Shown in pieces: positions 4,210-61,740 of a stretch of DNA of 64,000 bases. The stretch lies in NCBI GenBank assembly GCA_963697895.1, contig OY969100.1, forward strand, positions 192,001 to 256,000. The letters are read 5' to 3'. The first letter of the stretch is position 1. Every line of letters begins with the position of its first letter. Under the pieces are notes generated by a model. The model was not told the origin of the DNA, made no database searches, and worked only from the letters and a program-made list of their open reading frames with translations. This stretch comes from an uncultured Methanomicrobiales archaeon. Lineage in GTDB: Archaea; Halobacteriota; Methanomicrobia; Methanomicrobiales; Methanospirillaceae. The translations under genes were made by a program, and so were the position numbers.

Positions 4210-5064
4210 ATGAAATTTGATACCCGTTGTTTTGACTGCCTGCTCTCCCGAGTCGCCCTCGAGTGCCAGCTCTGCGGGGCGGATCCGCGGCAGAGCGAAG
4301 AGACCCTGCAGGCATGTGCCGCACTCCTCGATACCCTGAAGGCCGGGCCGCTCCTGCACCCGCAGATCGCCAGTGCCATGCACCGGAAGGCGTATGCTCT
4401 CCTCGGAGACCGGGACCCGTTCGCCGCGCTCAAGGAAGCGGGCAACCGGGAGGCGATCGCGGTCTGCCGGCAGGTGCGGCCGATGCTCACCGGATTCCGG
4501 GACTACTGCATCGCGAGCATCATCGGGAATACCTACGACTACGGGGTGAAGTCCCACACGGTGGAGAAGGACTTCCTCGCATTCTTCCGCGAGGCCTTCT
4601 CCGCCGGGCTGGCGATCGACGATACGGCCCGCATACAGAAGAAGATCGCACGGGTTGTTTATTTCACGGATAACTGCGGGGAGATCGTCTTCGACCGGCT
4701 GCTCCTCGAGGATCTCCATCGTCGTGGCTCCCGGATCACCCTGGTCGTCCGGGACGAGCCGATCCTCAACGATGCGACGATGAAGGAGGCACGGGAGCTC
4801 CGGCTCGAACGGTTCGTCGATACCCTTGCAACGACCGGATGCGGCTGCGAGCTCGGGGTACGGCTGGAATGCCTCTCCCCGGAGGTATCCCGTGCCCTTC
4901 GCGACTGCACGCTCGTCATCTCCAAGGGGATGGCGAATTACGAGTCTCTCTCCGAATTTTCGGGTCTGCCCCCGGTCGCCTACCTGATGGCGGTCAAATG
5001 CGACCCGATCGCGGAGGCGGTCGGTGTGCCCCGGGGTTCCCGGATCGCGATGCTGCAGGAATAA
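4210..5064 (+). CDS. Damage-control phosphatase, ARMT1/DUF89 family
   Basis: N-terminal CxxC, DPF..K..N, GNTYD, TDNCGE, PILNDAT and SKGMANYESL motifs. Confidence 0.9.
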   Translation: MKFDTRCFDCLLSRVALECQLCGADPRQSEETLQACAALLDTLKAGPLLHPQIASAMHRKAYALLGDRDPFAALKEAGNREAIAVCRQVRPMLTGFRDYCIASIIGNTYDYGVKSHTVEKDFLAFFREAFSAGLAIDDTARIQKKIARVVYFTDNCGEIVFDRLLLEDLHRRGSRITLVVRDEPILNDATMKEARELRLERFVDTLATTGCGCELGVRLECLSPEVSRALRDCTLVISKGMANYESLSEFSGLPPVAYLMAVKCDPIAEAVGVPRGSRIAMLQE

Positions 5065-5495
5065 ACCAGAGAAGAACCGATCGTTGTGCAGGAATAAATC
5101 AGGGGAGAAACGGATCATTCCTGCAAAAATGAACCAGGGAAGAACCGATCGTTGTGCAGGAATAAATCAGGGGAGAAACGGATCATTCCTGCAAAAATGA
5201 ACCAGGGAAGAACCGATCGTTGTGCAGGAATAAATGGGAAGGAATAGATCGTTCCCGGTTCACGATTCTTCAGGAATGAACCGGGGAAAAACCGATCATT
5301 CCGGATCGCGATGCTGCGGGAATGAACCGGGGAAAAACCGATCTTTCCGGATCGCGTTGCTGCGGGAATGAACAGGGGAAGACCCGATCGTTCCGGATCG
5401 CGTTGCTGCGGGAATGAACCGGGGAAAAACCGATCATTCCGGATCGCGATGCTGCAGGAATGAATCGTTCCCGGTTTACGGCGCTGCAGGAATAA
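5036..5495 (+). repeat. Degenerate tandem array derived from the 3' end of the DUF89 gene
   Basis: 68-bp period (5071, 5139, 5207) then 46-bp period (5301, 5347, 5393, 5439) of CCGGATCGCGWTGCTGCRGGAATRA, which is the gene's last codons plus stop. Confidence 0.9.
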
Positions 5496-5573
5496 CACAA
5501 GGCTTACGGGAGGTGGCGTCCCCGGCAGACGCGCAACCGACCCGAAATCAAATGTTATAAATATCCCCGGGTT

Positions 5574-5591
5574 ATACAAAATAAATTGTAT
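5574..5591. promoter_or_regulatory. Inverted repeat in the AT-rich cbiM promoter, candidate operator
   Basis: ATACAA-N6-TTGTAT between a TATA-like TTATAAATA (~5555-5563) and the cbiM ATG. Confidence 0.4.
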
Positions 5592-5619
5592 TAAAACAAA
5601 ATAAGTTGAGGTATTCAAT

Positions 5620-6312
5620 ATGCACATCATGGAAGGATTCCTGCCGCTCTCCTGGGCGGTTTTCTGGTGGATCATCGCCCTGCCCTGCCTGATATTCGGC
5701 ATCTACCGGCTGAAGAAAGTCCTGGATGCTGACCGCGAGGCGCTCCCGCTCCTCGGGGTGACGGGGGGGTTCATCTTCATCCTCTCCTCCCTGAAACTCC
5801 CGTCGGTCACCGGCAGCAGTTCGCACCCGACGGGGACGGGCCTGACCGCCGTCTGTTTCGGGCCCTGGATCACGACGGTGATCGCGGCGATCGTGCTCCT
5901 TTTCCAGGCCCTCTTTCTCGCCCATGGCGGGCTCTCGACCCTCGGGGCCAATCTCGTCTCGATGGGGATCGCCGGCCCGCTGGTCGGGTGGGGGATCTAC
6001 CGGGCGCTCCGGGATACCCGGGTCAATATGTACCTGACCGTTTTTCTCGCCTGTGCGTTCGCAGACCTGTTCACCTACGTGGTCACCTCGCTGGAACTGG
6101 CGCTCGCATTCCCGGCGGCAGTGGGCGGGGTAGGGAGCTCGTTCCTCCTGTTCATGGGCATCTTTGCGATAACCCAGGTACCCCTGGCGATCGTCGAGGG
6201 GGTCGTCCTCGCCCTGGTCTTCAAGTACATCGTCCAGCTCAAACCCGATATCCTTCTCCGTCTGCACGTCTTTCCGGAGGAGAAGATCCGGTCCGCCCGG
6301 GGGGAGGACTGA
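5620..6312 (+). CDS. cbiM: Cobalt ECF transporter substrate component CbiM
   Basis: Diagnostic MHIMEGFLP N-terminus, SSSHPTGTG, AHGGLSTLGAN. Confidence 0.95.
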   Translation: MHIMEGFLPLSWAVFWWIIALPCLIFGIYRLKKVLDADREALPLLGVTGGFIFILSSLKLPSVTGSSSHPTGTGLTAVCFGPWITTVIAAIVLLFQALFLAHGGLSTLGANLVSMGIAGPLVGWGIYRALRDTRVNMYLTVFLACAFADLFTYVVTSLELALAFPAAVGGVGSSFLLFMGIFAITQVPLAIVEGVVLALVFKYIVQLKPDILLRLHVFPEEKIRSARGED

Positions 6313-6626
6313 TGGCGTTCCGGTTCCGGCTGGAGATCCTTGCGATCGTCGCCGTCCTGGTGTTCGCGGGGATGTTCCTGTACACGAGTTCGATCGCCGG
6401 CAGCGGGGAGTTCTCCGGGTCGGACGATAAAGGGTCGGAGCAGGTCGCGAATATCACGGGAGTACCCGCGGAGGAGGTCCATCCCCTGATCCCGCAGTGG
6501 ATCCCTCCCGGGGCGGAGGTGGAATCCGCCTTGTTTGCGCTCCAGGCGGCGGCAGGCGGGATCATCGTCGGCTGGGTCTTCGGGTACTGGAAAGGTTTGA
6601 AAACGAAGGAGACCAAGAATAAATGA
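6312..6626 (+). CDS. cbiN: Cobalt transport protein CbiN
   Basis: TGATG overlap with cbiM; EFSGSDD...PPGAEVESALFALQAAAG motif. Confidence 0.9.
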   Translation: MAFRFRLEILAIVAVLVFAGMFLYTSSIAGSGEFSGSDDKGSEQVANITGVPAEEVHPLIPQWIPPGAEVESALFALQAAAGGIIVGWVFGYWKGLKTKETKNK

Positions 6627-6636
6627 GATTTCAGCC

Positions 6637-7426
6637 ATGTACGACGAACTCCTCGAGGACATCGCCCAGACGAACGGTCTCCGGGAAGTCAATACATACC
6701 TGAAACTGGCAGCGGGGCTCTGGGGGATCCTCCTCGTCCTCCTCTCTTCCAGTTACATCGCACCCCTTTCGATCGCCCTCCTCTTTACCGGGGCGATCCT
6801 TCTCCTCGCCCGGATAGACGGATGGACGTATGCGAAGCTCTTCATCGTGCCCTTCTGGTTTGCGGTCATGAGTGTCGCCGTCATCATCCTGCTTTCGGGG
6901 GGCAGCACGGTCTACTGGAGCTGGAGCCCGGCATCCTGGCTCTCGTTCTCGCTCACGGCAGAGAGCATCAACCAGGGAATTTTTGTGTTCTGCCGGGTTA
7001 TCGGAGGCATGTCGGCGCTTATCTTTATCGCCCTCACGACCCCGATGACGGATCTATTCGTGGTGATGCGCCGGGCCCGGATCCCGGAAGCCGTGCTGGA
7101 TCTCGCGATGATCATCTACCGGAGCATCTTTTCGATCATGGACCAGCTCGTGCAGACGTACCAGGCCCAGGTGATGCGATCCGGATATACCTCGTTCCGG
7201 GAATCGGTGCAATCCTTTTCTTCCCTCTGCGGCTCAGTATTTATCAGCGAGCTGGGAAGAAGGGGAGGATCTCATCCGGGCGATGGATGCACGCTGTTAC
7301 GCGGGAAAGTTTGCGATACTGGGGGAAAACCGCCCGGTGGAGCGTGTACCCCTCCTCGTGGTGGTGACATTCATCGCGCTGTCGTCCGCCATCGTGATCC
7401 TCACCGGAAATATAAGACTGATGTAG
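6637..7426 (+). CDS. cbiQ: Cobalt ECF transporter T component CbiQ (one-base frameshift at ~7246)
   Basis: CbiQ-like through SVFI; removing A7246 continues ASWEEGEDLIRAMDARCYAG...RLM* ending 12 nt before cbiO. Confidence 0.85.
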
Positions 7427-7438
7427 GGCAGAAATTCC

Positions 7439-8674
7439 ATGAGCAGCATCATCCTCGAGGCACGGGAGATCCGGTATCGCTACCCGCGGGGACCGGAGGC
7501 GCTCCAGGGGATCAGCTTTCATATCCGGAAAGGAGAGAAGATCGCCCTTGTCGGCCCGAACGGGGCCGGAAAATCGACGCTCATGCTGATGTTCAACGGC
7601 ATGATCCGCCCCGATTCCGGGGTCCTCCTCTTCGACAACGCGGAGGTCCGGTACGACAAGGCGTCGCTCCGGATGCTCCGGAAACGGGTCGGGTTCGTCC
7701 TCCAGAACCCGGACCGGCAGATCATCGCGCCGACGGTGTACCAGGACGTCGCATTCGGGCCGACGAACCTCGGGTACACGGGAGAGGAGATCTCCCGTGC
7801 GGTGGCAGGAGCGCTCGGCCAGGTCGGGCTCGGGGGGTTCGAACGGCGTCCCCCGCACCAGCTCTCCGGCGGGGAGAAGAAACGGGTGGCGATCGCCGGG
7901 GTGCTTGCGATGAACCCCGACCTGCTCGTGCTGGACGAACCGACGAGCGGCCTCGACCCTTCCGGGTCGGAGGATATCATGGAACTCCTCGACGAACTCA
8001 ATCACCAGGGAAAGACGATCATCATCGCCACGCACGACATCGAGCTCGCCTATCCCTGGGCCGACCGGGCGATCCTCCTCTTAAAAGGCAGGATCCTCCA
8101 GGAGGACGTCCCGGACGTGGCCTTCGGCAGGCAGGAGTATGTCCGGCTGGCCCGGCTTTCGGTCCCGATCCTCCTCGACCTCTACTTCGAACTCGTAAAA
8201 CGGGGTTTTCCCGTTCCCGAAAGAAAGCCGCGGACGGTCCTCGACATGCTGAACGTGATCGACCGGGCATTTCAGAACCGTCCCTGTTACACCGAGCCCG
8301 GGACGATCAGCGTCATCGATGTCGATTCTTCCCCGGAGGGTCCCCTTCCGGCATGGCTCGCGGCGCATCCGGGGGGGACGGTGGGTGCGATGGGGACCCG
8401 GGCGAAACAGCGTGCCGCGGACCGGGAGGTCGTCCTCGATTTCACCTACGGGGTGATCGACAAGTGTATCCTGAAGGCCCTGCTCGGCGAAGACGCCCTC
8501 ATCCTCACGACGGAGAGCATGGTCCACCGGGTCTTCGACCGGGTCGGGGAGTTTTCGCGGGAGAACGGCCTCTCTATCCCGGTGAAACTTCTCGGCGGAT
8601 CGACGGGGAATGAATCCGCCGAAAATAAGCAGGATCCGGAATCGGCCGATCCGGTCGGGGGTTATCCACATTGA
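7439..8674 (+). CDS. cbiO: Cobalt ECF transporter ATPase CbiO with C-terminal extension
   Basis: Walker A GPNGAGKST, LSGGEKKR signature, LDEPTSGLD Walker B. Confidence 0.92.
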   Translation: MSSIILEAREIRYRYPRGPEALQGISFHIRKGEKIALVGPNGAGKSTLMLMFNGMIRPDSGVLLFDNAEVRYDKASLRMLRKRVGFVLQNPDRQIIAPTVYQDVAFGPTNLGYTGEEISRAVAGALGQVGLGGFERRPPHQLSGGEKKRVAIAGVLAMNPDLLVLDEPTSGLDPSGSEDIMELLDELNHQGKTIIIATHDIELAYPWADRAILLLKGRILQEDVPDVAFGRQEYVRLARLSVPILLDLYFELVKRGFPVPERKPRTVLDMLNVIDRAFQNRPCYTEPGTISVIDVDSSPEGPLPAWLAAHPGGTVGAMGTRAKQRAADREVVLDFTYGVIDKCILKALLGEDALILTTESMVHRVFDRVGEFSRENGLSIPVKLLGGSTGNESAENKQDPESADPVGGYPH

Positions 8675-14829: not shown

Positions 14830-15260
14830 TGGGGGGCGATCGTCAGGTTTCCTGCCATTCCGGGCTCGGATTTCCACCGGGTCGGATCAGGCGTTCAGGA
14901 GGAGGGAGGATCAGCATGATCAGCATTACCACGATCGCAAAAGATCGATAGGAGGGACAATCGCCCGGGTTCCTTCCACCAGGTCGGATCAGTCATTCAG
15001 GAAGGCAGGGGAGGAATACCCGCATTATCGGCTCACGGCGAACGATCATAGAGGGGATAATCGTCCGGGTTCCTTCCACAAGGTCGGATCAGTCATTTGG
15101 GAAGGCAGGGGAGGAATACCCGCATTATCGGCTCACGGCGAACGATCATAGAGGGGACAATCGTCCGGGTTCCCGTCATCGCGGGCGGTTTTCCACCGGG
15201 TCAGATCAGGCAAGGAGGTAGGGGAGGAGGATCAGCATGATCAGCATCACCACGATCACC
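14830..15260 (-). repeat. Degenerate ~100-bp tandem array derived from the 3' end of the site-2 protease gene
   Basis: TTCCACM.GGTC.GATCAG recurs at ~14872, 14974, 15074 and 15191; the 14872 copy retains GAGGATCAGCATGATCAGCAT of the coding end. Confidence 0.88.
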
Positions 15261-16495
15261 GAGGAGACGGCGGAGACGACGACCGGGACATACTTTGCCA
15301 GCCCCCGGCGAACGAGCAGCCGGTTCACCCCTTCCTTCATGATATATCCCCCGTCCAGCGGGATCATCGGTATCGCGTTGAAGATCCCGACATTGAGGTT
15401 GATCCAGCCGGACCAGAAGAGGATATGGATGACGCTCCAGAAGAGGGGAAACGGAATGCTGTAGAAAGCGGTCGCCGGGGTGTCTACCGCAAGGAGGCGA
15501 AGGGACTGACCGGCGACGCTCATATCGAAGGGGATGGTGATCAGCCGGAGGAACCCGACGATGGAGAGGCTGTTCGCCACCTCGGCGGAGACCAGCTGAC
15601 CGCTGAAGTAGTATACCCCCATGAACCCGGTGGTGCGGTTTCCGATCTCCTCCGGCCAGGGGGAGAGCGTCAGCGCATAGGTATCGGGGACCCCGCTGGT
15701 TTCGGCCGCGAGGGTGATGTTCTGACCGGGCACGGTCGTGTTGAGGAACGCGGCGACCTGGTCCGGGGTCTGCACCGCGGTCCCGTTCATCGCCGTGATG
15801 ACCGACCAGGGCGGGACCCCCGCCTCGGCGGCGGAATAGTTCGCGTAGACTCCCTGGATCACGGGGGCGTCGGTCGGCACTGCCGCCCCGAAGAGGAGGA
15901 TCATCGCGGTGAAGCAGATCACGCCGAGGACGATGTTGTTCGTAATCCCGGCCCCGAACATCCGGACTTTCGGCGCCGGTTTTGCCTGCTCGAGATCCTC
16001 CTCGTCCGGTTCGACAAAGAACCCGATAGGGATCACCGCGATGATAATCCCTATCGCCCGCACCCGGATCCCCTCTATCCGGGAGAGCACCCCGTGCCCG
16101 AGCTCGTGGACCGCAATGGTAAGGATAAAGGCAAACCAGACTGCAAAGGTGGACGGGACGTACTGGTTGATCCCGGGGATGAGCAGGATGTTCTGGGGTT
16201 CATAGATCCCCGTCGGGGGCGGGTGCACGGCGAGCGTGTACTGGAGCGAAAAGAAGAGGAGCACGGTGATGGAGACCGAGATCACGGCGACCATGATCAC
16301 GCCGAACGTGGCGTATATCCGGAGGAACGGGCCGAGGCGGTCGAACGCGTCCAGGAATCCTACGGTTTTGCTCCTGATCGCCATAATCGGACCGTAAAAC
16401 CCGATATGGTCGGGGAGTATCTTCTTCCGCCAGATGAAGAGGGCGATGATCGCATACGCGAGGATAAAAAGAATGACGATCAGGAGCCAGTTCAT
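15206..16495 (-). CDS. Site-2 protease (M50 intramembrane metalloprotease) with PDZ domain
   Basis: HELGH zinc motif, GAGITNN, NAIPMIPLDGG, several TM segments. Confidence 0.92.
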   Translation of the reverse strand: MNWLLIVILFILAYAIIALFIWRKKILPDHIGFYGPIMAIRSKTVGFLDAFDRLGPFLRIYATFGVIMVAVISVSITVLLFFSLQYTLAVHPPPTGIYEPQNILLIPGINQYVPSTFAVWFAFILTIAVHELGHGVLSRIEGIRVRAIGIIIAVIPIGFFVEPDEEDLEQAKPAPKVRMFGAGITNNIVLGVICFTAMILLFGAAVPTDAPVIQGVYANYSAAEAGVPPWSVITAMNGTAVQTPDQVAAFLNTTVPGQNITLAAETSGVPDTYALTLSPWPEEIGNRTTGFMGVYYFSGQLVSAEVANSLSIVGFLRLITIPFDMSVAGQSLRLLAVDTPATAFYSIPFPLFWSVIHILFWSGWINLNVGIFNAIPMIPLDGGYIMKEGVNRLLVRRGLAKYVPVVVSAVSSVIVVMLIMLILLPYLLA

Positions 16496-17226: not shown

Positions 17227-17644
17227 GATATTTCAAGGATGGTACCGGGACAGTGCCGGGGATATTTCAAGGATGGTACCGGGACAGCGCCGGGGATATT
17301 TCAAGGATGGTACCGGGACAGCGCCGGGGATATTTCAAGGATGGTACCGGGACAGCGCCCGGGGATATTTCAAGGATGGTACCGGGACAGCGCCCGGGGA
17401 TATTTCAAGGATGGTACCGGGACAGCGCCCGGGGATATTTCAAGGATGGTACCGGGACAGCGCCCGGGGATATTTCAAGGATGGTACCGGGACAGCGCCC
17501 GGGGATATTTCAAGGACGGTACCGGGACAGTGCCGGGGATATTTCAAGAAGGGTACCGGGACAGCGCCCGGGGATATTTCAAGAAGGGTACCGGGACAGC
17601 GCCCGGGGATATTTCAAGGATGGTACCGGGACAGTGCCGGGGAT
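17227..17644. repeat. Tandem repeat (VNTR), 12 copies of 34-35 bp
   Basis: Unit GATATTTCAAGGATGGTACCGGGACAGCGCC(C)GGG, near-identical copies, no spacers. Confidence 0.97.
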
Positions 17645-20276: not shown

Positions 20277-21032
20277 TCAGACGAAGTACCGGAGTTCCTC
20301 GTCCCGGGAGACCCGTTCCCCCTCGATCAGGTGCTGGATCACCTGCTCCATCTCGGTCCCCCGCTGCTGGAGCCGGGTCGGATCCACCGTGATGCCGAGG
20401 AGGGTGGAGAGAACCCGGAGCAGGCTTGCGGCACTGAGGGGATCGACGAGGTACCCCGAGGTCTCCCCCATCAGGCAGATCCCGTCCATGCCCCGTTCCA
20501 CCCCGAGGCCGAGCAGGAGGCCGGCTGCACCGACGATGCCGCCGCCGGGTTCTCCCCGGTCAAAGACGGCGCCCGCCGCCTCGACCTCCGGACGGAGCTC
20601 CGGCCGGTTGACCGCCCCGAGCACCCGTGGCTCGTCGACCAGGTGGCCGACCCCGTACCCGCCGAGCGTATAGATCCGTTTCACGCCGCATGACGAAGCG
20701 ATCGAGAGGTAGCGGTCGGCAAGATGGTAGTGCCCTTCATGCGTTCCGCTCTGGTGATCGCCGACGAGAAAGAGGATACTCAGGTCCTCCCCCGCATAAT
20801 GGTACAGCTCGTTGTTCGCGAGCCTGACGGTCCCGCTCTCATCGATGATCACCTGCGGGGGAAAATAGACTGCATGAATCTCGGCGACCTTCCGTGCGCC
20901 GAGCTCCTCGATCAGGTGCTCCGCAACGAGCTTCCCGACGTACCCGATCCCGGGCAGCCCCTCGATCAGGATCGATGCCCGGATCTCCTCTTCCGCGATT
21001 CCCGGTGAGAACTGGACCGTGATCTCTTTCAT
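20277..21032 (-). CDS. Proteasome assembly chaperone family protein (PAC2/PbaB-like)
   Basis: IEGLPGIGYVGKL, FPPQV, IYTLGGYGVG, CLMGETSGYLVDP; usual position after nop10. Confidence 0.9.
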   Translation of the reverse strand: MKEITVQFSPGIAEEEIRASILIEGLPGIGYVGKLVAEHLIEELGARKVAEIHAVYFPPQVIIDESGTVRLANNELYHYAGEDLSILFLVGDHQSGTHEGHYHLADRYLSIASSCGVKRIYTLGGYGVGHLVDEPRVLGAVNRPELRPEVEAAGAVFDRGEPGGGIVGAAGLLLGLGVERGMDGICLMGETSGYLVDPLSAASLLRVLSTLLGITVDPTRLQQRGTEMEQVIQHLIEGERVSRDEELRYFV

Positions 21033-21285
21033 CGGCACCCGTCCCTCCGGTATTTTCCGCAGGGATCCTGCGGGGAGAACTGGACCGTGATCTCTTTCAT
21101 CGGCACTCGCCTGACCGGTATTTTCCATAGGGATCCTGCAGGGAAAAATGGACCGTGATCTCTTTCATCGGCACTCGCCTGACCGGTATTTTCCGTAGGG
21201 ATCCTGCGGGAAAAAAATGGACCGTGATCTCTTTCATCGGCATTCGTTCCTCCGGTATTTTCCATAGGGATCCTGCGGGGAGAAC
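21002..21285 (-). repeat. Four 68-69-bp copies of the nop10 stop / PAC2 start junction
   Basis: TGCCGATGAAAGAGATCACGGTCCA with ATG at 21237, 21168, 21100 and 21032. Confidence 0.95.
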
Positions 21286-21386
21286 CGCGCCGGATGGGGA
21301 GTGCCGGTCGGCTCCCCGCAGGCAGGGCAGACGGGCTGTAAGGTATAGGTACCGTCTGCGGGGCAGCGCCGGATCCTGCCCTTCAT
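21234..21386 (-). CDS. nop10: H/ACA RNP protein Nop10 (50 aa, absent from the ORF track)
   Basis: MKGRIRRCPADGTYTLQPVCPACGEPTGTPHPARFSPQDPYGKYRRNECR*; overlaps the eIF2-alpha stop. Confidence 0.95.
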   Translation of the reverse strand: MKGRIRRCPADGTYTLQPVCPACGEPTGTPHPARFSPQDPYGKYRRNECR

Positions 21387-23534: not shown

Positions 23535-24683
23535 TCAGGCACCTCCCGCGATCTCGGCGATCCCCCGGCAGCAGAGGAAGACCGCGAGTGCCTCGGGGAC
23601 GGTTGCCTCCCCCTTCGGGAGCGTATGCTGCTCCCCGAGGAGCGTCATCGAGACCGGCAGCGAACAGGCGACCGTCACCGGGCGGGTTCCGAAGATCACT
23701 GCGTCGACGAGGGGATCGAAATCGGGAAGGTCCCGGAGCGGCACCCGGGTTACCCGGAGACCGCTCCCGCCGTGCAGGGAGGTGGGCATCCGGATCAGCC
23801 GCCGGGTATCGGTGGTGACCGGTTCGTCGGCGAGCGCCGCCTTCTCCCGGAGCCTCTGCCGGAACTCCCCGTCCTTCTCCTCCTGCAGCGCGGCAAGGAT
23901 CGCCCACGTCGTCCGGTCTTCCCGCTTTCCGAAGGAACCGCGCCCGAGTTTCTCCGCGAGCTCCGCTCTTCCCCGGTAAAACCGTTCCGCAGATGTTTTC
24001 CCCACGCCCTCAAGCGACATGAGCCGTTCCACCGCCTCTTCTTCTGTCCGGCCGTCGAGCCACGAAAGGTACTCGAGCAGTGCTGCTATATAGCGCTGCT
24101 GCCACCCGCGGGGTGAAGGTGAGGGGGCCGGGAGCAGGAGCTGCGGGTCGATCCCGATCCCGCAGACATAGTCGATCAGCTCCCTCCGTTCCGCGCTCGA
24201 CAATCCCCGCACCGCGAGATCCCGGATATGGACATGATACCCCCGTCCGCCGGAGAAGACCACGTCCAGGTGCTGCCGGTCGAACCCGAGCTCCCCGGTG
24301 AGCATCTCCACGAGCTTCTCCGTCTCGACCTTTACCCGGGCGAGCATCTGCTCGTAGGGGCCCCGCACGATATGGTCCGCATCGAGGTCGAAGACGAGGT
24401 CCGCACCTGCCCATCCCTTCCCGTCCATCGTCCCGGCACCCGGCGTCGCGTAATACGCGACCGAGTAGTACGCATGTGCGGGGGCCATGGCCCGCAGGTA
24501 CTCCAGGAGTTCTGTCCGGCCGGGAAATCCCAGGTGCCGGCGCATCCGGATCTCCGGGTAATCGGGGTCGAAGAAGACGAATCCCCACTCCCGCTGGTCT
24601 GCTGACGGGGGAGGGACCAGTTGCTCCCCGGAGTAATATTCACCGAACCGCTGCCGCAAAAATTCAAGGGTGGCCGCCTTCAT
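23535..24683 (-). CDS. priS: DNA primase small (catalytic) subunit
   Basis: QREWGF, ADLVFDLDAD, FSGGRGYHVH, DEPVTTDTRRLIRMPTSLHG. Confidence 0.95.
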   Translation of the reverse strand: MKAATLEFLRQRFGEYYSGEQLVPPPSADQREWGFVFFDPDYPEIRMRRHLGFPGRTELLEYLRAMAPAHAYYSVAYYATPGAGTMDGKGWAGADLVFDLDADHIVRGPYEQMLARVKVETEKLVEMLTGELGFDRQHLDVVFSGGRGYHVHIRDLAVRGLSSAERRELIDYVCGIGIDPQLLLPAPSPSPRGWQQRYIAALLEYLSWLDGRTEEEAVERLMSLEGVGKTSAERFYRGRAELAEKLGRGSFGKREDRTTWAILAALQEEKDGEFRQRLREKAALADEPVTTDTRRLIRMPTSLHGGSGLRVTRVPLRDLPDFDPLVDAVIFGTRPVTVACSLPVSMTLLGEQHTLPKGEATVPEALAVFLCCRGIAEIAGGA

Positions 24684-25000
24684 CCCCGCTCCTGATCAGG
24701 TATGGACCCTTCCCGTGATATCCGTGTCTCCGGTACCAGGGCCGCACCCCGATCCCGGATCAGGTGCGGACTCTTCCCGTGATATCCGTGTCTCCGGCGT
24801 CAGGGCCGCACTCCGCTCCCGGATCGGACTAGCCCCTCGGGGTGGTACCCGCGTCTCTGGTATCCGGCCGCCTCATCGCCGCTCCCGGATCGGACTGGCC
24901 CCTCGGGGTGGTACCCGCCGCCTCATCCCTGCTCCCGGATCAGGTACGGGCCCTCGCGGTGATATCCGTGTCTCCGGTACCAGGGCCGCACCCCGATCCC
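24680..25000 (-). repeat. Degenerate tandem array derived from the elp3 3' end; the distal copy supplies the priS ATG
   Basis: GTGATATCCGTGTCTCCGG at ~24715, 24779 and 24959 (gene); two shorter GCCCCTCGGGGTGGTACCCG variants at ~24832 and 24898. Confidence 0.9.
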
Positions 25001-26491
25001 GCTCATCACCGCGATGCGCCGGTACCCGGCCGCCCACGCCGCCTCTTCCGCGGCGGCGAGGAGCCGGTCGCCGAACCTCCGGTGCTGCCGCTGTTCCGGG
25101 TCGGGCGACCGTCCGATCGGGACCATGCTCCCGTAGACGTGGAGCTCCCGGATGAGCGCGGCATCCTTCGTCTCCTCCCGCCACCGGTCACCGCCGGTCC
25201 GGAGCCGGGCAAACCCGATCAGGGAGTCGCCGGAGACCGCGGAGATGAAATGCTCCTCCCCCCCGCAGCAGGAGTACCGTTCTTCCGTCATTTCAGCCGC
25301 TGCCTCGGACGGGAGGCGCCCGATCTCCCGGCACCGGATGCACCGGCACCGCCCGCCCTGATCCTCCAGCCGGTCCCGGGCGAGCTGGCGGAAGTTGCTG
25401 TGCCGCGAACCGGCGACGATCAGCTTTGCCGGGATGTCCCGCTGGATCCGCTGGAGCCGGACATACGGGGGGAGCAGGGACTTTCCGTATGCACAGAGGT
25501 CGATCAGGAGATCCTCATCGTAGGGGGCATACGCCCCCTCCTGCCAGAGCGCCTCGATCTCCGATCCCGGCGTGACCAGGGTCGGGTAGATCTTCAGGAA
25601 GTCGGGGCGGAACCGGTCGTCCGAGAAGAGCCCCTCGAAGAGGTGGCGGTCGTCCGCGATCGTGCTCCCGGGGAGGTTCGGCATCACATGGAACCCGACC
25701 TTGAGCCCGGCGTCCCGGAGGAGCCGGTTTGCGTTCACGGTGTCCGCAACGGTGCAGCCCCGCCGGTTGAAGGCGAGGATCCGGTCGTCGATCTGCTGCA
25801 CCCCGAGCTCGACCTTGGTGACCCCGAGGCTGAGCATACGGTCGATCTCCGGCTGCCGGCACCAGTCGGGGCGGGTCTCGAACGTCATCGCGACGCAGCG
25901 GACCGGTGCGGTCTCGTTTCTCGCAAAGACCTCCTCTCTGGTTGGGGAACCGCCGGTCGGGACCTTCCCGTATTCGTTCATCGCCCGGATGCACGCGGTC
26001 ACGAACCCCTCCTGGTATTCCCAGGGACGGGCGGTCATCGTCCCGCCCATCACGATCAGCTCCGCCTTATCCACCGCATGCCCGAGGGCCTCGAACTGTC
26101 CGAGCCGGGCCTGTACCTGTGTATACGGGTCGTAGTCGTGCTCCCGTGCCCGGAGGGCGGCGGGTTCCTCCCCGGTATAGCTCTGCGGCGACTGGAACGG
26201 GTGATCGGGCCCCCCGGGGCAGGGGAGGCATTTCCCGTGGGGGCAGGGGGCCGGGGAGGTCATCACGGCGATCGGGGCGACCCCCGAGAGCGTCCGCCCG
26301 GGCTTGACCAGGAGGAGTCGCCGGAGTTTTTTCCTGTCCTCCGGCGACGCGGCGGCAAGGAGGAGCGAGTTCCGGGGAACCACCGGGAGGGAGTACTTCC
26401 GTGAAACAACCAGTTTTATCCGGTGAATATCCGGGTTCGGCTCAGAAAAGCACAGGGATATGATCTCCCTGCAGACGTCGCGTTCATCCAT
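24923..26491 (-). CDS. elp3: tRNA uridine(34) acetyltransferase Elp3 (radical SAM + GNAT)
   Basis: RTLSGVAP, CPHGKCLPCPGG, QSYTGEEP, ETRPD, LKIYPTLV, RIQRDIP, RELHVYG. Confidence 0.96.
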   Translation of the reverse strand: MDERDVCREIISLCFSEPNPDIHRIKLVVSRKYSLPVVPRNSLLLAAASPEDRKKLRRLLLVKPGRTLSGVAPIAVMTSPAPCPHGKCLPCPGGPDHPFQSPQSYTGEEPAALRAREHDYDPYTQVQARLGQFEALGHAVDKAELIVMGGTMTARPWEYQEGFVTACIRAMNEYGKVPTGGSPTREEVFARNETAPVRCVAMTFETRPDWCRQPEIDRMLSLGVTKVELGVQQIDDRILAFNRRGCTVADTVNANRLLRDAGLKVGFHVMPNLPGSTIADDRHLFEGLFSDDRFRPDFLKIYPTLVTPGSEIEALWQEGAYAPYDEDLLIDLCAYGKSLLPPYVRLQRIQRDIPAKLIVAGSRHSNFRQLARDRLEDQGGRCRCIRCREIGRLPSEAAAEMTEERYSCCGGEEHFISAVSGDSLIGFARLRTGGDRWREETKDAALIRELHVYGSMVPIGRSPDPEQRQHRRFGDRLLAAAEEAAWAAGYRRIAVMSGIGVRPWYRRHGYHREGPYLIREQG

Positions 26492-33412: not shown

Positions 33413-33721
33413 TCTGGACCTCTCATCGATACGGGAGCACCGGGAGGAAGATGGTGAAAATCATGCGTTTTCTCTGCATGGCAGGGTGTGGCCGTCATGA
33501 TACAGAAAATTCTCCCGGTGCGGTCTTCCGCACCAGCGGTAAACTGTCTCTTCTATAGGCGCCGGCACTACTTAAACTTGTTCGAAGTGCCATGATAATC
33601 CGTGCCAACCGCCGAATGGAGCATATAAAATGGTTTTTATACCGGGAGAGCTGCACGAGTGGACAGGTCCTCCGGAACGTGAGGGGGAGAAGGATCATTG
33701 GAGGAGCTCCAGGCCGTTCCG

Positions 33722-33870
33722 GCCACGGAAAGGTGGCATCATGTGGCCATACATGATGAAGAGGGGTTCCGCCACGGGAAAAGAGGCATCATGGCGCTGT
33801 ATTTGATGAAGAGGGGTTGCGTTACGGGAAAAGAGGCCTCACGTTGCCGTACATAATGAGGAGGGGTTTC
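33722..33870. repeat. Three diverged 49-50-bp tandem copies
   Basis: Units start 33722, 33771 and 33821; each ends ATGARGAGGGGTT. Confidence 0.8.
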
Positions 33871-40449: not shown

Positions 40450-41350
40450 AAAGAATAGATCACATTTTTAAACAAAATTCTGAAGTTCCCATGGGAACAG
40501 GTTTGGAACAGGTTGGGTCCTTCACTGGGAACAGATCGAATACGGTTTAAAACGATTGAATGAGTAATCGGTACATTATAAAAGATAATAATAATATAGA
40601 ATACTATGAAGTTCCCAAAAAACAGAGAGCGCAGTAAACACTGTTAACACATCTGCGAACTTTCAATTTTCTTATTCCTGTTCCCCTCCCACGTGCGTTC
40701 CGGGAAATTGGGAACACCTGTTGGAAAAACTTGCAGATTATCTATAAAATGATGAATGGATTTCTTATTGTAGATATTTACCTGTTCCCAGATCTGTTCC
40801 CAATCAGTTCCCAGCTGGGAACAGGTGGAACAGGTTAAGGAACGCGAATAGATTTCGACACGTCCCCCCGTAACAGCATTTGATAAAGAGGCGCCGGCAT
40901 TTTCGTTTGAATGTCCGGCGGGAAACTCCCTGTGGGAGAACCAAAAAGATAGCATAAGTTTGATGTGATCCCATCTTTTTCCCATCGTTTCCCAGTGGGA
41001 AAGGGTTGGGAAACGATCTGGGAAACGATAATTTTCGATCTATGCAGTTATTTTCTCAATAACTCCCTGATCTATAAAGTTCAGGTTTTCGTTTTCCCAT
41101 TTTTCGCATTTTCAGGAAACGCAGACACAAGATGATGGAGGATCAAAAAATAAATTTGGAAAAAAATGTTAACAGTGTTTACCGCGCTCTCACACTTTTG
41201 GGAAAACTAATTGTTATATATTTATTATTTCTATTTTAATCATCCGGATTTCTTATTGGAACATTATTTAACCCATTTGATTGTTTCCCAATTGCTTTCC
41301 CAATCGTATCCCAGGTGGGAAAACTGGGAAACGATTGATCTATTTTCTGC
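40450..41350. repeat. Diverged ~900-bp inverted duplication made of two iteron-rich, AT-rich modules (origin-like)
   Basis: Core GAGAGCGCRGTAAACACTGTTAACA at 40625-40649 (+) and 41167-41191 (-); ~12 GGAACA-type repeats in the left arm, ~12 GGGAAA-type in the right arm. Confidence 0.85.
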
Positions 41351-41564
41351 GGTACTTACTGCACTCGTACCCTCTTTGTGGAAATTCAAGGGAAATTCTT
41401 GTAAAAATATCTCCACCCCCGGGCGCTGGCGATTTATCTTGATCCCGGTCGATGAATCGTCACCAGCGGTTAGGAGCATATCTTGTCAGATGAAAGGGGC
41501 TTTTCATCTCCCGACGGACAACAAACCCCAACCTGTTAATAGAAAAAAGGATTACCAGAACCCC

Positions 41565-41825
41565 ATGGGTTTTCCCCCCACCGCGGATCAGTTCCGGGCC
41601 CTCTTCCGGAAGAAATCGATCGCCGAACTCGAGAAGAATGTCTCGACGACCCATGCCCTGAAACGGGTCCTCGGGACGTGGGAGCTGATCTTCCTCGGGA
41701 TCGGTGCGGTGGTCGGCACCGGCATCTTCGTCATCACCGGGATCGCGGCGGCCGATTACGCCGGTCCCGGGGTGGTCCTCTCGTTCGTGATCCCGGGGAC
41801 CGCCGCGATCTTTGCCGCAGCGTGA
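41565..41825 (+). pseudogene. Truncated 5' copy (86 aa) of the APC amino acid permease at 48003
   Basis: 41516-41819 aligns without gaps to 47954-48257, then stops after TM2. Confidence 0.9.
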
Positions 41826-47695: not shown

Positions 47696-48002
47696 TCCTT
47701 TTTCGGAGAATTTTTCGTCAATTCCTGTCCTATCTCCGCCTCCGGAAGACGTGTGCCGGGATCAAGGAAAAGATCACATGCTGGTGGACCTCACCCGGAA
47801 CTCCATCTCCGGGATTTCTCAGGGAAAATTATGACAGAGGAAGTCATCCGATGAGTCCGTTCTGGGTTTTTTTGATCCCGATCACCGAAATCATCTCCCG
47901 TGTATGTCTGCGACCGCATTCTTTTGTGAAATGGGAAACCATGTCAGACGTAAGGACGACAAACCCCAACCTGTTAATAGAAAAAAGGATTACCAGAACC
48001 CC

Positions 48003-49433
48003 ATGGGTTTTCCCCCCACCGCGGACCAGGTCCGTTCGTTGTTCCGGAAGAAATCGATCGCCGAGCTCGAACAGAATATCTCGACGACCCATGCCCTGAA
48101 ACGGGTCCTCGGGACGTGGGAGCTGATCTTCCTCGGCATCGGTGCGGTGGTCGGCACCGGCATCTTCGTCATCACCGGGATCGCAGCGGCGGATTACGCC
48201 GGACCCGGGGTGGTCCTTTCTTTCGTGATCGCGGGGACCGCCGCGATCTTTGCCGCACTCTGCTACGCGGAGTTCGCGGCGATGGTCCCGATCGCGGGGA
48301 GTGCCTATACCTACAGTTATGCCTCGCTCGGGGAGATATGGGCATGGATCATCGGCTGGGACCTGATCCTCGAGTACACGGTCGCGGTTGCCGCGGTCGC
48401 GATCGGGTGGTCGGGGTATATCGCCGTTTTCTTCGCCGAGGCAGGGTTTCCCCTGCCTCCCGCGCTCATAAACCCATACGGCACCGCGGGAGGGATCGTC
48501 AACCTCCCCGCGATCCTGATCATCGCCCTGATCACCGGGCTCCTCATCCTCGGGGTGCAGGAGAGCACCCGGGTGAACAACGTGATCGTCCTGATCAAGC
48601 TCTCCGTGCTCGCCGTCTTCCTGTTCATCGGCTTCGGGCATATCAATCCGGCGAACTGGAACCCGTTCCTCCCGTTCGGCCTGAGCGGGGTGGTCGCCGG
48701 GGCAGCGATCGTCTTCTTCGCGTACATCGGGTTCGACGCGGTCTCGACGGCGGCCGAGGAGGTCCGCGACCCGCAGAAGCGGCTTCCGGTCGGGATCATC
48801 TTCTCGCTCCTCATCTCCACCGCCCTGTACATCGCGGTGGCCGCCGTCCTCACCCTCATCGTCCCGTACACGAGCCTCGGGGAGACGGCGGCACCGGTCG
48901 CGTACGCCCTCACCCAGATCGGGGTGACCTGGGGGGCGGCCCTGGTCTCGGTCGGGGCGATCGCCGGGATCACCTCGGTCATCCTCGTGCTCCTGTACGG
49001 GCAGTCACGGATCTTCTTTGCGATGGCGAGGGACGGGCTCCTGCCTGCGGTCTTCGCCCGGGTGCACCCGGTCCTCCGGACACCGGTCCTCGTCAGCCTC
49101 CTCCTCGGCGTGGTCACCGCGGTACTCGCGAGTCTCCTTTCCCTCGAGTCGATCGCCGAGCTCGTGAACATCGGCACCCTCGCCGCCTTCATCATCGTCT
49201 CCGCCGGGGTGATCGCCCTCCGGAGGTCGCACCCGGAGATCCCGCGGCCCTTCCGGTGCCCGCTGGTCCCGCTCGTGCCGCTGCTCGCCATCGGGTTCTG
49301 CGGGTACCTTGCCTGGGTTCTCCCCGCGATCACCCACCTGCGGTTCGTGGTCTGGCTCCTGATCGGGCTCGTGATCTACTTCCTCTACGGCCGGTACCGC
49401 AGTACCGAAGGAAAAATGCGAACGCAACCGTGA
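48003..49433 (+). CDS. APC family amino acid permease (cationic amino acid transporter-like)
   Basis: LKRVLG, GAVVGTGIFV, LCYAEFA, AGSAYTY, FAYIGFDAVSTAAEE, RPFRCP. Confidence 0.94.
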   Translation: MGFPPTADQVRSLFRKKSIAELEQNISTTHALKRVLGTWELIFLGIGAVVGTGIFVITGIAAADYAGPGVVLSFVIAGTAAIFAALCYAEFAAMVPIAGSAYTYSYASLGEIWAWIIGWDLILEYTVAVAAVAIGWSGYIAVFFAEAGFPLPPALINPYGTAGGIVNLPAILIIALITGLLILGVQESTRVNNVIVLIKLSVLAVFLFIGFGHINPANWNPFLPFGLSGVVAGAAIVFFAYIGFDAVSTAAEEVRDPQKRLPVGIIFSLLISTALYIAVAAVLTLIVPYTSLGETAAPVAYALTQIGVTWGAALVSVGAIAGITSVILVLLYGQSRIFFAMARDGLLPAVFARVHPVLRTPVLVSLLLGVVTAVLASLLSLESIAELVNIGTLAAFIIVSAGVIALRRSHPEIPRPFRCPLVPLVPLLAIGFCGYLAWVLPAITHLRFVVWLLIGLVIYFLYGRYRSTEGKMRTQP

Positions 49434-53661: not shown

Positions 53662-53788
53662 ATGGTATCACAAAGCCCTGTTTTTGTATACGGGAGGATT
53701 TCCGGTTATGTATATAAAATCCTTTTGGAGAAACAACTGGTTATAGGGGCGCACTGCGAGGTTCGACCCTCCAGGTTTCGCCAAGTCC

Positions 53789-54045
53789 GGAAAGGAAGGT
53801 GAAAAACGGGATCCCATTTTCGGATAAAAATAATGATTCATTCACGGATAAAATGGAAAGGACGGTGGAAAACAGGATCCCCATTTTCGGATAACAATAA
53901 TGATTCTTTCACGGATAAAACGGAAAGGACGGTGGAAAACAGGATCTCTTTTCGGATAACAATAATGATTCATTCACGGATAAAACGGAAAGGACGGTGA
54001 AAAACGGGATCCGCATTTTCGGATAACAATAATGATTCTTTCACG
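53789..54045. repeat. Four 65-67-bp tandem copies, AT-rich
   Basis: Units start 53789, 53855, 53922 and 53987; shared TTTTCGGATAAMAATAATGATTCWTTCACG. Confidence 0.93.
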
Positions 54046-58308: not shown

Positions 58309-58310
58309 AC

Positions 58311-58320
58311 TTTTTTTTTT
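58311..58320 (+). terminator. Oligo-T archaeal intrinsic terminator
   Basis: T10 two bases after the stop of the CxxC-x17-CxxC gene. Confidence 0.7.
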
Positions 58321-58344
58321 GCGATCCGTCCGGTCGCGTTTCAT

Positions 58345-58509: not shown

Positions 58510-58733
58510 ACCGTATTACATCAGAGGATCTGCACCTATTATCTCCTTTTCCTCCGGGCAATTCCCCCTGTACTGCAGATGCCTTCGTGGTGGTATCATT
58601 CAAAAAGGTTACACCGAATCATTTGCTTCACGAACTCTGCATTTTGCAGGACGGTCGCACCGGCTGTGGTCTGAGGCAATCCCGGCATCTGAACAGCAAC
58701 ATTCTTTTCAGCCTGCGTCCCGATCGTACAGGT

Positions 58734-60023
58734 GTGACGGGGAACGCACCGGTTCCAGCCGGCCTGAAGAGGCAGCTCGGCCTGACGACGGTCACCCTCT
58801 CCGGGATCGGGATCATCCTCGGTGCCGGCATCTATGTCCTCATCGGCACGGCGGCGGGTGATGCCGGGAATGCGGTCTGGCTCTCGTTTCTCATCTCGGC
58901 CGTGATCGCGCTCTGCACCGCCCTGAGCTATGCCGAGCTCTCCTCGATGTTTCCCCGGGCAGCCGCAGAATACGACTATACCACCCATTCGCTCGGCAGG
59001 ACAGTCGCGTTCGTGATCGGCTGGCTCATCATCTTCTCCGGCATGGTAGGTGCCGCAACGGTCGCACTTGGGTTTGGCGGGTACCTGCATGCACTCGCCG
59101 GTATACCCCCCATTGCCGGTGCCCTGCTCATCCTGATTCTTCTCTCCCTTATCCTGTTTGCCGGGATTCGCGAGAGCGCCGGTTTGGCGGTTGTATTCAC
59201 CCTGATCGAAGCGGGGGGGCTGATCGGGGTGATCGTCGCGGGGATCCCGTATCTCGGGACGGTCGACTACCTCGGGATGCCCTTCGGTATCGGCGGGGTG
59301 CTCTCCGGTGCGGCGCTCGTCTTCTTTGCCTTCCTCGGGTTCGAGGAGATGGTCAAGTTCTCGGAGGAGACCCGCGACCCGGAACGGACCGTTCCCCGTG
59401 CCCTCCTCATCGCCCTCGCCGCATCCACGCTCATATACATCCTCGTCGCGATCGCGGCGGTGAGCACGGTCGGCTGGGAAGCGCTGAGCACCTCGGACGC
59501 CCCGTTCTCCCTCGTCGCATCGGTTGCCTGGGGAGTGAACGGTGCCGTTGCCCTCTCGGTCATCGCCCTGTTCGCGACCGCAAACACCGTGCTCCTCATG
59601 CTCTATGCCACGAGCCGGATCACCTACGGTATGGCCCGATCGGGGGCGCTTCCGTCGGTCTTCTCCCGGGTGAACCTCGCCCGGCAGACCCCCTGGGCGG
59701 CGCTGATCGTCTCCGCGATCGGCGCAGCGATCTTCCTCTTCGCCGGGGATATCGGGTTCGTGGCGGGAGTGACCAACTTCACCGTCTTTGTCACCTTCAT
59801 CGTGGTCAACCTCACCGTGCTGATCCTCCGGTACCGCGACCCGCTCCGGCCCCGCCCCTTCCGGTCTCCGGTATCGATCGGGGGGGTGGCCGTCTTTCCT
59901 CTCATCGGCCTCCTCTCCTGCTTCTTCCTCATCACGGAGCTGGAGCCGCTCGTCATCCTGACCGGTTCCCTCATCGGGGCCGCCGGGGTGGTGATCGCGG
60001 TGGCGGTGAAGAACCGGGGATGA
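58734..60023 (+). CDS. APC family amino acid permease
   Basis: LKRQLG, GIILGAGIYVL, LSYAELSSMFP, FAFLGFE, EETRDPERTVPRA, RPFR. Confidence 0.92.
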   Translation: MTGNAPVPAGLKRQLGLTTVTLSGIGIILGAGIYVLIGTAAGDAGNAVWLSFLISAVIALCTALSYAELSSMFPRAAAEYDYTTHSLGRTVAFVIGWLIIFSGMVGAATVALGFGGYLHALAGIPPIAGALLILILLSLILFAGIRESAGLAVVFTLIEAGGLIGVIVAGIPYLGTVDYLGMPFGIGGVLSGAALVFFAFLGFEEMVKFSEETRDPERTVPRALLIALAASTLIYILVAIAAVSTVGWEALSTSDAPFSLVASVAWGVNGAVALSVIALFATANTVLLMLYATSRITYGMARSGALPSVFSRVNLARQTPWAALIVSAIGAAIFLFAGDIGFVAGVTNFTVFVTFIVVNLTVLILRYRDPLRPRPFRSPVSIGGVAVFPLIGLLSCFFLITELEPLVILTGSLIGAAGVVIAVAVKNRG

Positions 60024-60200
60024 GATCGGCTGTTCCATCCCGGATCGCCATAATCGCGGCATTCCTCCCGGACGGCCGGGTGCCGGGGAAGACCTGAAAA
60101 AAAGTGATCACCCGTTTCCCCCCCGGAATAAACTATATGCCTATATATATGAGCAAAAAGTAGATAGAGGCATATAGAATTCCCGGAGATCATCGGCCGC

Positions 60201-61223
60201 ATGGATATCAGGAAAGTGCAGGTAACCGGCGGGTCGTCGTTCGTCATCACGCTCCCCAAGGACTGGGCGGAATCGATGCACATCAAGAAGAACGATCCGC
60301 TCGGCGTGTATGTTCAGTCGGACGGCACGCTGCTCATCACCCGGAGCATAACAGAGAGCCAGGTGCAGCGGGTGAAGAAGATCGATATCACGGCGATCAC
60401 GGATCCCCAGTACCTGTTCCGGCTGCTGATCGGGGCATACATCGCGGGATACTCGGTGATCCAGATCGCCGGAAAGGGACGGTTCCCGACATTCGTCCAC
60501 ACGGTCGTCCGGGACTTTGCGCAGATGACGATCGGGTTCGAGGTGATGGAGGAGAGCGAGAGCGGGGTGCTGTTAAAGGATCTCCTCAACCCGATGGAGA
60601 TGCCGCTCGAGAACTCGGTGAAACGGATGTATGTGATCGTGAAAAACATGTTTGCCGATGCGATCACCGCACTCGAGACCCGTAATATCCCCCTCGCGCA
60701 GGATGTCATCGCCCGGGACAACGACGTCGACCGGTTGCACTGGCTCATCGAACGCCAGGCCAATATCGTCCTGAAGAATCCCGCGATCTCGCGAAAGATC
60801 GGGGTCAAGATCGGGGAGGTGGTGAACACCTCGGCGATCTGCCGGATCATCGAGCGGATCGGGGATCACGCGGTTCGTGAAGCAGAAAATGCCATCCGGA
60901 TCATCGAGTATCTTCCCGACAAGCAATCCCTGGATACCGGGATCATCGGGAAGATACAGGCGGCGAGTAAGCTGTCGCTCGCCCTCTTCGACCGGAGCAT
61001 CGTCTCGTTCTTCAAGGCGGATATCCGTGGATCCAACCGCAATATCGAGTCGGTCGGGGAACTGGAACGCAGCTGCGAGGAGATCAATACGCTCGCCCGT
61101 ACCCAGGATATCGAGATCGCCATCGCGCTCCGGAACATGGCAGAAAGCATCCGGCGTGCCGGAGAATATTCGGGCGATATCTCGGAGAACGTGATCAACT
61201 ACCTCGTGGAAGAGAAGATATAG
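60201..61223 (+). CDS. phoU: Phosphate uptake regulator, AbrB-PhoU archaeal type
   Basis: RKVQVTGGSSFVITLPKDWA AbrB domain, RDNDVDRL, IERIGDHA, SIRRAGEY. Confidence 0.92.
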   Translation: MDIRKVQVTGGSSFVITLPKDWAESMHIKKNDPLGVYVQSDGTLLITRSITESQVQRVKKIDITAITDPQYLFRLLIGAYIAGYSVIQIAGKGRFPTFVHTVVRDFAQMTIGFEVMEESESGVLLKDLLNPMEMPLENSVKRMYVIVKNMFADAITALETRNIPLAQDVIARDNDVDRLHWLIERQANIVLKNPAISRKIGVKIGEVVNTSAICRIIERIGDHAVREAENAIRIIEYLPDKQSLDTGIIGKIQAASKLSLALFDRSIVSFFKADIRGSNRNIESVGELERSCEEINTLARTQDIEIAIALRNMAESIRRAGEYSGDISENVINYLVEEKI

Positions 61224-61740
61224 CGCCTGCCAGTACGCCAACCGGCAGAATATCCGGGGATATCCCGAGAACAGGATCACTTAGCTCGGGGAAGAGAAGA
61301 TATAGCCCTGCCGGATACACGCAGGCAGAAATATTTCAGCTATATCCCGGAGAACGTTTCCAACCATCCCCGGGAAAGAAGGAAGAGGGCCTGCCTGTAC
61401 GCCAACCGGCAGAATATTTCGGCGATATTTCGGAGAACGGCATCACCTACCTCGGGGAAGAGAAGATATACCGGACGCCCACCGGCAGGATACCCCGGGC
61501 GATATCCCGGAGAACAGGATCGCCTACCTCGTGGAAGAGAAGATATACCGGAAGCCCACCGGCAGAATACCCGGGTGATATCCCGGAGAACAGGATCGCC
61601 TACCTTGTGGAAGAGAAGATATACCCTGCCGGATACCCGTAGGCAGAACTATTTCAGCTATATCCCGGAGAACGTGTCCAACTATCCCCGGGAGAGAAGA
61701 AAGAGCGCCTGCTGCCCGGACGCCCACTGGCAGAATGCTC
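61160..61740 (+). repeat. Degenerate ~76-85-bp tandem array derived from the phoU 3' end (gene copy plus six echoes)
   Basis: Units start ~61160, 61243, 61323, 61407, 61483, 61560 and 61641; motif GATATCCCGGAGAAC...TACCTCGTGGAAGAGAAGATATA. Confidence 0.92.

Follow-up and report, generated by a model that had tools for sequence, protein, structure and literature searches.

Tandem copies of gene ends on a Methanomicrobiales chromosome probably represent locus-specific, slippage-type minisatellites filtered by selection

On the chromosome of an uncultured Methanomicrobiales archaeon (contig OY969100.1), five unrelated genes are followed by tandem arrays that repeat their own last codons and stop. 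These arrays lie in a 64,000-nt stretch, referred to here as the window, which corresponds to positions 192001-256000 of the single-contig 2.09-Mb genome. An original prediction, made from the letters of the window, had attributed them to a process that acts at gene ends irrespective of the locus, and had named as its null explanation a general slippage tendency, in which only harmless duplications survive. Our analysis favours the null: the arrays are probably locus-specific minisatellites of the slippage type that have been filtered by selection.

Arrays were detected with Tandem Repeats Finder (TRF). All five were recovered by TRF at the places where they had been noted and were confirmed by reading the DNA. 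The arrays, their host genes, and the genes that follow nop10 and elp3 are as follows:

4201..5064, plus strand: ARMT1-like (DUF89) phosphatase gene (Pfam PF01937, residues 3-310 of 311)
5036..5495, plus strand: array 3' of the DUF89 gene (TRF 5053-5235, 68 nt × 2.7, then 5247-5464, 46 nt × 4.7, then a last partial copy)
15206..16495, minus strand: site-2 protease (S2P, peptidase M50) gene (Pfam PF02163)
14830..15205, minus strand: array 3' of the S2P gene, with about four units of ~100 nt (TRF 14954-15173, 100 nt × 2.2)
21234..21386, minus strand: nop10, 50 codons (translation; Pfam PF04135)
21003..21285, minus strand: nop10 array, 68 nt × 4.1 (TRF and sequence reading)
20277..21032, minus strand: PAC2-family gene (Pfam PF09754; reading of the open reading frame)
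24923..26491, minus strand: elp3 (radical SAM/GNAT) gene (Pfam PF16199, PF23613, PF04055, PF00583)
24684..24968, minus strand: elp3 compound array of 64-nt and 50-nt units (TRF 24694-24825, 64 nt × 2.1, and 24858-24968, 50 nt × 2.2)
23535..24683, minus strand: DNA primase small subunit (PriS) gene (Pfam PF01896)
60201..61223, plus strand: AbrB/MazE-PhoU domain gene (Pfam PF01895, PF04014)
61159..61740, plus strand: array 3' of the PhoU-domain gene, 76-82-nt units (TRF 61159-61673, 82 nt × 6.4)

Near full-length Pfam domain matches confirmed the gene names and showed that the five open reading frames (ORFs) are undamaged, as predicted. The span 21002-21285, at which nop10 had been noted, proved to be the array, and the gene itself occupies 21234-21386. 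According to the DNA reading, the initial unit of each of the five arrays includes the terminal codons and stop of the host gene; in the DUF89 gene, for example, the first repeat unit holds the last codons together with the stop. Units adjoin one another with neither spacers nor foreign DNA between copies, and a CRISPR array was ruled out because the units abut without unique spacers. Many arrays appear to stop in a partial unit, as suggested by copy numbers of 2.1, 2.2, and 4.1. Both the TRF output and the sequence reading revealed that most differences between copies are substitutions and that the copies fall into subtypes, again as predicted, with TRF percent matches of 72-100% for the non-coding arrays. 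Six copies in the DUF89 array match the last 24 nt of the gene at 19-23 of 24 positions, and the PhoU array has lost the stop (TAG to TAC) in three of the four copies found. The S2P array continues, as judged by eye, in more diverged copies down to ~14830, and among its units the distal one carries the gene end at its longest. A closer likeness to the gene in the distal copy than in the inner copies had been noted for S2P and elp3, with which our inspection by eye agreed; the same applies to nop10, where the inner copies are mutually identical and match the gene at 18/24 positions, compared to 21/24 for the distal copy.

The arrays behind nop10 and elp3 are duplications of a gene-gene junction. 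In the nop10 unit, the final ~45 nt of nop10 are linked via ATGA to the initial ~23 nt of the PAC2 gene, and the elp3 units reproduce the end of elp3, the ATGA, and the opening PriS codons. The original description of the units as a coding end plus some 3' flank was therefore correct in that each gene's own end is copied, but has to be amended for nop10 and elp3, whose units also take in the initial ~20 nt of the gene that follows. In the nop10 array, the last repeat unit holds the true PAC2 start, and a 78-codon ORF (21029-21265, minus strand) crosses this array and terminates within the ATGA at which PAC2 begins. In the elp3 array, there is no repeat-borne ORF coupled to the downstream start, and the distal copy is frameshifted. 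A metagenome scan with the S2P protein yielded relatives of 52-64% identity and none closer. On metagenome contigs of family-level relatives, an overlap of 4 nt between Elp3 and PriS was seen in 10/10 loci and one of 4-19 nt between Nop10 and PAC2 in 23/23 loci, whereas the corresponding spacers in this genome measure 239 nt (elp3-PriS) and 201 nt (nop10-PAC2) and consist entirely of repeat. As the relatives overlap at both junctions and the spacers here are all repeats, the arrays are derived insertions of local sequence. The boundary of the nop10 unit falls at a short motif, GTTCTC(C/A)CCG, which is common to nop10 and PAC2; such a putative microhomology at a unit boundary was seen at this one locus. 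Upstream, the nop10 start overlaps the aIF2-alpha stop in ATGA (21383-21386), as it does in 19/19 loci of relatives. The aIF2-alpha-nop10 junction remained compact and the next junction downstream expanded.

The genome-wide set consists of merged arrays with a period of at least 20 nt, and its genes are home-made gene calls. TRF revealed 91 such arrays, 40 of them inside coding sequences (CDS) and 51 outside. Periods divisible by three were found in 39/40 arrays inside CDS compared to 21/51 outside. The units of the 51 non-coding arrays, compared all-against-all and with the genome, showed no noteworthy similarity from locus to locus: a single marginal 17-nt match joins two loci, a 13-nt match joins the two elp3 sub-arrays, and copies elsewhere in the genome were found for 0/51 units. 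The five units of the window are thus unrelated to each other, as had been stated, and a dispersed repeat similar to the interspersed repetitive units of mycobacteria (MIRUs) or REP was ruled out, since no unit family occupies many loci. Both flanking genes were called for 49 arrays, whose spacers are divergent in 6 cases, convergent in 10, and tandem in 33. Because arrays occur inside genes, in divergent-promoter spacers, and across start codons, general slippage with survival of the harmless duplications is favoured over a process at gene ends, and the frame filter and the presence of arrays in all spacer types argue in the same direction. An own lag-identity routine for lengthening arrays yielded no gain beyond the TRF limits. 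Non-genic arrays of the window include the following, to which no strand is assigned:

17227..17644: 35 nt × 12, between the RNase HII and geranylgeranyl reductase genes (TRF)
33716..33868: 50 nt × 3.1 (TRF)
53788..54045: 67 nt × 3.9 (TRF)

Related strains were compared by means of contigs from four public runs, belonging to four different studies, over 20 kb of the window. In a 15-kb contig that is ~94% identical, 104 other letters replace the 434-nt S2P array region, and 347 nt of the 35-mer array as well as most of the DUF89 array are skipped. Within the 46-nt units (5301-5467), a second contig from that run steps back by 167 nt, which corresponds to more copies; related-strain contigs at the DUF89 array thus either skip from 5062 to 5385 or carry extra copies. 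Two further runs have 66 letters instead of the 35-mer array (17227-17644). All of these are short-read contigs, which can collapse near-identical units, and such a collapse may have affected the 35-mer array. Regarding the nop10 array, the longest contig pieces listed for the four runs end or begin beside it, and none bridges it. In sum, copy number or presence differs between related strains at the DUF89, S2P, and 35-mer arrays, the last being skipped or replaced in contigs of four runs. In family-level relatives, 25 arrays (3.0 per 100 kb) were counted in 830 kb of syntenic loci, compared to 18 merged arrays in the window (28 per 100 kb). A comparison of orthologous loci had been proposed along with the original prediction: echoes of the 3' end (at least 21/30) were found at 0/80 S2P, 0/23 Nop10, and 0/10 Elp3 orthologue ends, and at 1/56 DUF89 orthologue ends. 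The latter belongs to a distant relative (loci L053:2150-2400 and L090:7150-7328), in which a 46-nt array abuts the DUF89 3' end. The last 30 nt of the gene are echoed there at 21/30, each unit contains a perfect, short hairpin whose stem varies, and the unit has no evident likeness, by eye, to the DUF89 unit of this genome.

The following course of events appears most likely. A stretch of 20-140 nt would be duplicated head to tail, with short direct repeats permitting slipped-strand mispairing or template switching, and later slippage or unequal recombination would expand, contract, and reshuffle the copies. The duplication process would be blind to genes. Selection would then purge duplications that break frames or promoters, and the survivors would be located in spacers, in frame within genes, or across a stop codon. 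In a stop-spanning array, the first copy would keep the gene whole and the later copies would be untranslated junk, while a duplication over a compact ATGA junction would keep both genes complete, the upstream one in the first unit and the downstream one in the last. The two end units of an array would descend from the original pair and the inner units would be amplified copies of a mutated unit, which could account for the outermost copy being the most gene-like. We infer both slippage as the molecular mechanism and the selective filter. Microhomology slippage, which had been suggested for sites where transcription terminates, stays the likely mechanism, but is not tied to termination.

A preference for stop codons was addressed in two ways. 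In total, 1650 genes entered a gene-end echo test, in which the last 30 nt of the CDS recurred (at least 21/30) within 400 nt downstream for 15/1650 genes, compared to 0/1650 in a permuted control; gene-end echoes are therefore real and beyond chance. The first 30 nt, compared with the upstream 400 nt, recurred in 4/1650 genes, and two inward controls gave 2/1428 each. The alignment of CDS ends with their downstream sequence, which had been put forward as a check, thus revealed echoes above chance, with a smaller number at 5' ends. In the second approach, a null test, the founding duplication was placed at random in or around the present spacer of each array. When three cut-offs for gene score, two choices of period, and three 5' tolerances were applied, 9.1-13.3 stop-spanning arrays were expected and 15-18 were observed among 46-49 arrays (P 0.004-0.10). 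With collapsed spacer lengths, the expectation was 10.8-12.1/49 (observed 18), and with the true extents of the five window arrays corrected it was 12.2-13.5 (observed 18/48, P 0.017-0.05). Start-spanning arrays numbered 7, compared to 8.1 expected under full tolerance. The coding share of the unit ranged from 0.01 to 0.94 and was skewed low (Kolmogorov-Smirnov P 0.034). The excess at stops is at most weak and depends on the model; it would take only a mild constraint on promoter-proximal spacer to yield it.

Several points weigh against slippage and selection as a full account. Stop-spanning arrays exceed the expectation from spacer geometry 1.3- to 1.7-fold (15-18 vs. 9.1-13.5), and a genome-uniform model expects only 5.6-6.9/51, although this expectation is too low because uncalled genes are counted as spacer. 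Echoes were counted for 15 genes at the 3' end vs. 4 at the 5' end, the low-skewed coding share is not predicted by pure uniform placement, and genome-wide slippage alone leaves unaccounted for that 25/51 non-coding arrays are located within the first 300 kb. Furthermore, home-made calls and frameshift-like splits may have made some gene ends outside the window wrong, and slippage itself is unobserved. The stop-spanning excess and the asymmetry between 3' and 5' echoes, together with the unrelated 46-nt array at the DUF89 3' end of the distant relative, could also be explained by duplications directed at gene 3' ends, e.g., by slippage or break repair at sites where transcription ends or encounters replication. 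We consider this unlikely, as similar arrays are located inside genes, in divergent promoter spacers, and across starts, and the non-spanning arrays of tandem spacers show no pull to the 3' side. In addition, the excess shrinks once array extents are corrected and could stem from the mild promoter-proximal constraint, and the 3'-end test found no echo at the S2P, Nop10, and Elp3 orthologue ends. The outcome that had been named as speaking against a gene-end process, namely no excess of stop-spanning arrays over random placement, is close to what was found, and such a process is not supported by our data.

Other explanations are less probable still. That the arrays are functional non-coding elements, i.e., 3'-untranslated-region or regulatory RNAs or arrays of protein-binding sites, is very unlikely: nothing direct speaks in favour, no motif is common to the loci, and the arrays are undetected at the orthologous loci of relatives and variable between strains. 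No Rfam family matched the window at the gathering score, and the 51 units folded like control spacer DNA (mean z -0.17 vs. -0.43, P 0.21; second test -0.44 vs. -0.26, P 0.55), so the proposed structured 3' RNAs found no support. An origin in error-prone assembly would be in line with frameshift-like splits in 38/227 tested genes and with a marker completeness of only 93.85% for the single 2.09-Mb contig. It is nevertheless highly improbable, as the copies fall into subtypes and are set apart mainly by substitutions, and contigs from the four other public runs hold array sequence with other copy numbers, or break there. We hardly give any credence to scars of integration and excision that regenerate the 3' end, or to a store of C-termini for gene conversion, both of which had been offered as options. 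The stop is included in the copies and kept at the homologous place in 25/41 echo copies, which would fit such a role; however, frames and stops decay, and mismatches to the last 24 nt in these 41 copies are spread evenly over codon positions 1, 2, and 3 (51/49/63, 287 sites each, P 0.35), i.e., the echo copies show no coding constraint. Moreover, no integrase, transposase, or reverse transcriptase family was found among the 48 scanned window proteins; given this and the contiguous copies, without foreign DNA in between, attachment-site scars were rejected.

The 38/227 figure refers to long ORFs of two relatives with an orthologue-like match in this genome that align in two adjacent frames, a set that is partly redundant and contains overlapping frames. 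Such two-frame alignments reflect either many assembly indel errors or many broken genes. Within the window, the PAS-diadenylate cyclase gene (~57182) aligns to relatives in this manner. With regard to a lost repair gene, for which a search had been suggested, the MutS gene is present and split by one frameshift near residue 171-176; as 38/227 tested genes show such splits, an assembly error is as likely as a real loss, and no conclusion was drawn. NucS_C was not found in this genome and matched only 4/30 relatives at E ≤0.001. GATC is the most over-represented tetranucleotide genome-wide (2.65× expectation, ~10 per kb), and CTAG is nearly absent (0.045×). GATC was considered as a cause of the arrays and found unconvincing, as the enrichment in units (13.0 per kb, 26/51 with a site) over spacer (7.2 per kb) is mild.

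The arrays are distributed unevenly along the chromosome. The first 300 kb, which hold the 25/51 non-coding arrays mentioned above, make up 14% of the genome (binomial P 4e-9) and 19% of the spacer (P 1e-6). One crude classifier gave 8.3 non-coding arrays per 100 kb in this domain vs. 1.0 in the rest of the genome, and 1.25 per 100 kb in 400-kb samples from each of two related complete genomes. Mean GC content at third codon positions (GC3) is 0.77 in the first 300 kb vs. 0.66 elsewhere. Synonymous GC falls into large domains, with values of ~0.73-0.83 (0-300 kb), 0.68-0.78 (between 0.9 and 1.4 Mb), 0.71-0.72 (between 1.8 and 1.9 Mb), and ~0.57-0.68 (remaining chromosome). Array count and GC3 correlate in 50-kb bins (Spearman 0.61, P 2e-5), also without the first 300 kb (0.42, P 0.01). 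A link to the replication origin was discarded, as Cdc6_C matches at 1.709 and 2.074 Mb, outside the array-rich domain, and GC skew is weak. Tentatively, this 300-kb domain with 7-8× array density and the highest GC3 could mark a different regime of replication, repair, or recombination that rewired compact, translationally coupled junctions between essential genes (nop10-PAC2 and elp3-primase), although we remain rather doubtful. Recombination-linked GC bias combined with unequal exchange would be our guess for what lies behind the regional pattern, of which no published account was found in the literature searched.

Bacterial minisatellites, also referred to as variable number tandem repeats, arise by replication slippage and consist of locus-specific head-to-tail units of tens of bases that differ in copy number between strains. 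The arrays described here resemble them in their head-to-tail units of local sequence, in strain variation, and in being tolerated only where the frame is unbroken; they differ in that no phenotype or phase variation is implied and in their unusually regional density. The original prediction knew of no named system for this pattern. Almost the same syndrome, however, is described for the tandem repeats of Borgs, the Methanoperedens extrachromosomal elements (Schoelmerich et al. 2023, PMC9879509). In the parts of that paper available to us, in-ORF units are all divisible by three, compared to 14-38% of intergenic ones, and the repeats have unique units, flanking partial repeats, first units within gene ends, and rapid turnover. 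The units of our arrays are likewise particular to their locus, three-divisible inside ORFs, apparently flanked by partial repeats, and absent or different in close relatives, and here, too, the first unit may begin in a gene end. According to the same parts, Borg copies are perfect and adenine-rich, reside on a giant extrachromosomal element, and are nearly absent from the host chromosome, whereas copies here are 72-100% alike, GC-rich, chromosomal among housekeeping genes, and concentrated in one 300-kb domain. MIRUs sit between operon genes (PMC12548453, seen in part), and the ORF of the nop10 array, which ends 4 nt into the downstream start (ATGA), is similar to what is described for them. 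However, MIRUs form one dispersed, apparently mobile family, in contrast to the own-locus copies found here, and the elp3 array lacks a coupled ORF. Surveys of prokaryotic genomes found tandem and close direct repeats to be enriched in spacers and to be more frequent immediately downstream of stop codons and upstream of start codons than within genes, which was read as spacer permissiveness (PMC12418385, PMC4060949). The available portions of these surveys describe neither stop-including units nor a chromosomal hot domain, and among the papers listed in a literature search on intergenic tandem repeats of Methanomicrobiales, none is about such arrays, as judged by title and abstract.

Gene-end echoes therefore probably need no dedicated mechanism, and the by-product explanation should be tried first wherever they are seen. 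The two junction arrays provide clean examples of a short duplication that separates two overlapping, co-translated genes with neither of them damaged. The chromosome as a whole is an archaeal case of strongly regional minisatellite formation that tracks synonymous GC.

Apart from the arrays, two further regions of the window caught our interest. An AT-rich spacer at 40450-41350 contains several clusters of converging short repeats with AT-rich stretches between them, including three CTGTTCCCA followed by two inverted TGGGAACAG-like copies at 40780-40845, and TTTCCCA/TGGGAAAC sets at 40965-41030 and again at 41280-41345. This cluster is the only one of its kind in the genome and presumably resembles an origin- or iteron-like protein-binding region; no Cdc6 gene was found near it, the Cdc6_C matches being those at 1.709 and 2.074 Mb. 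The second region comprises a 111-codon ORF (41490-41825) with no Pfam match, located upstream of the gene for a 1896-residue RCC1/beta-helix/PKD protein, and a full amino-acid permease gene (47904-49433) located after it. By eye, the end of the 111-codon ORF reads like the N-terminus of an amino-acid permease, and a permease gene may thus have been split by insertion of the large RCC1/beta-helix/PKD gene.

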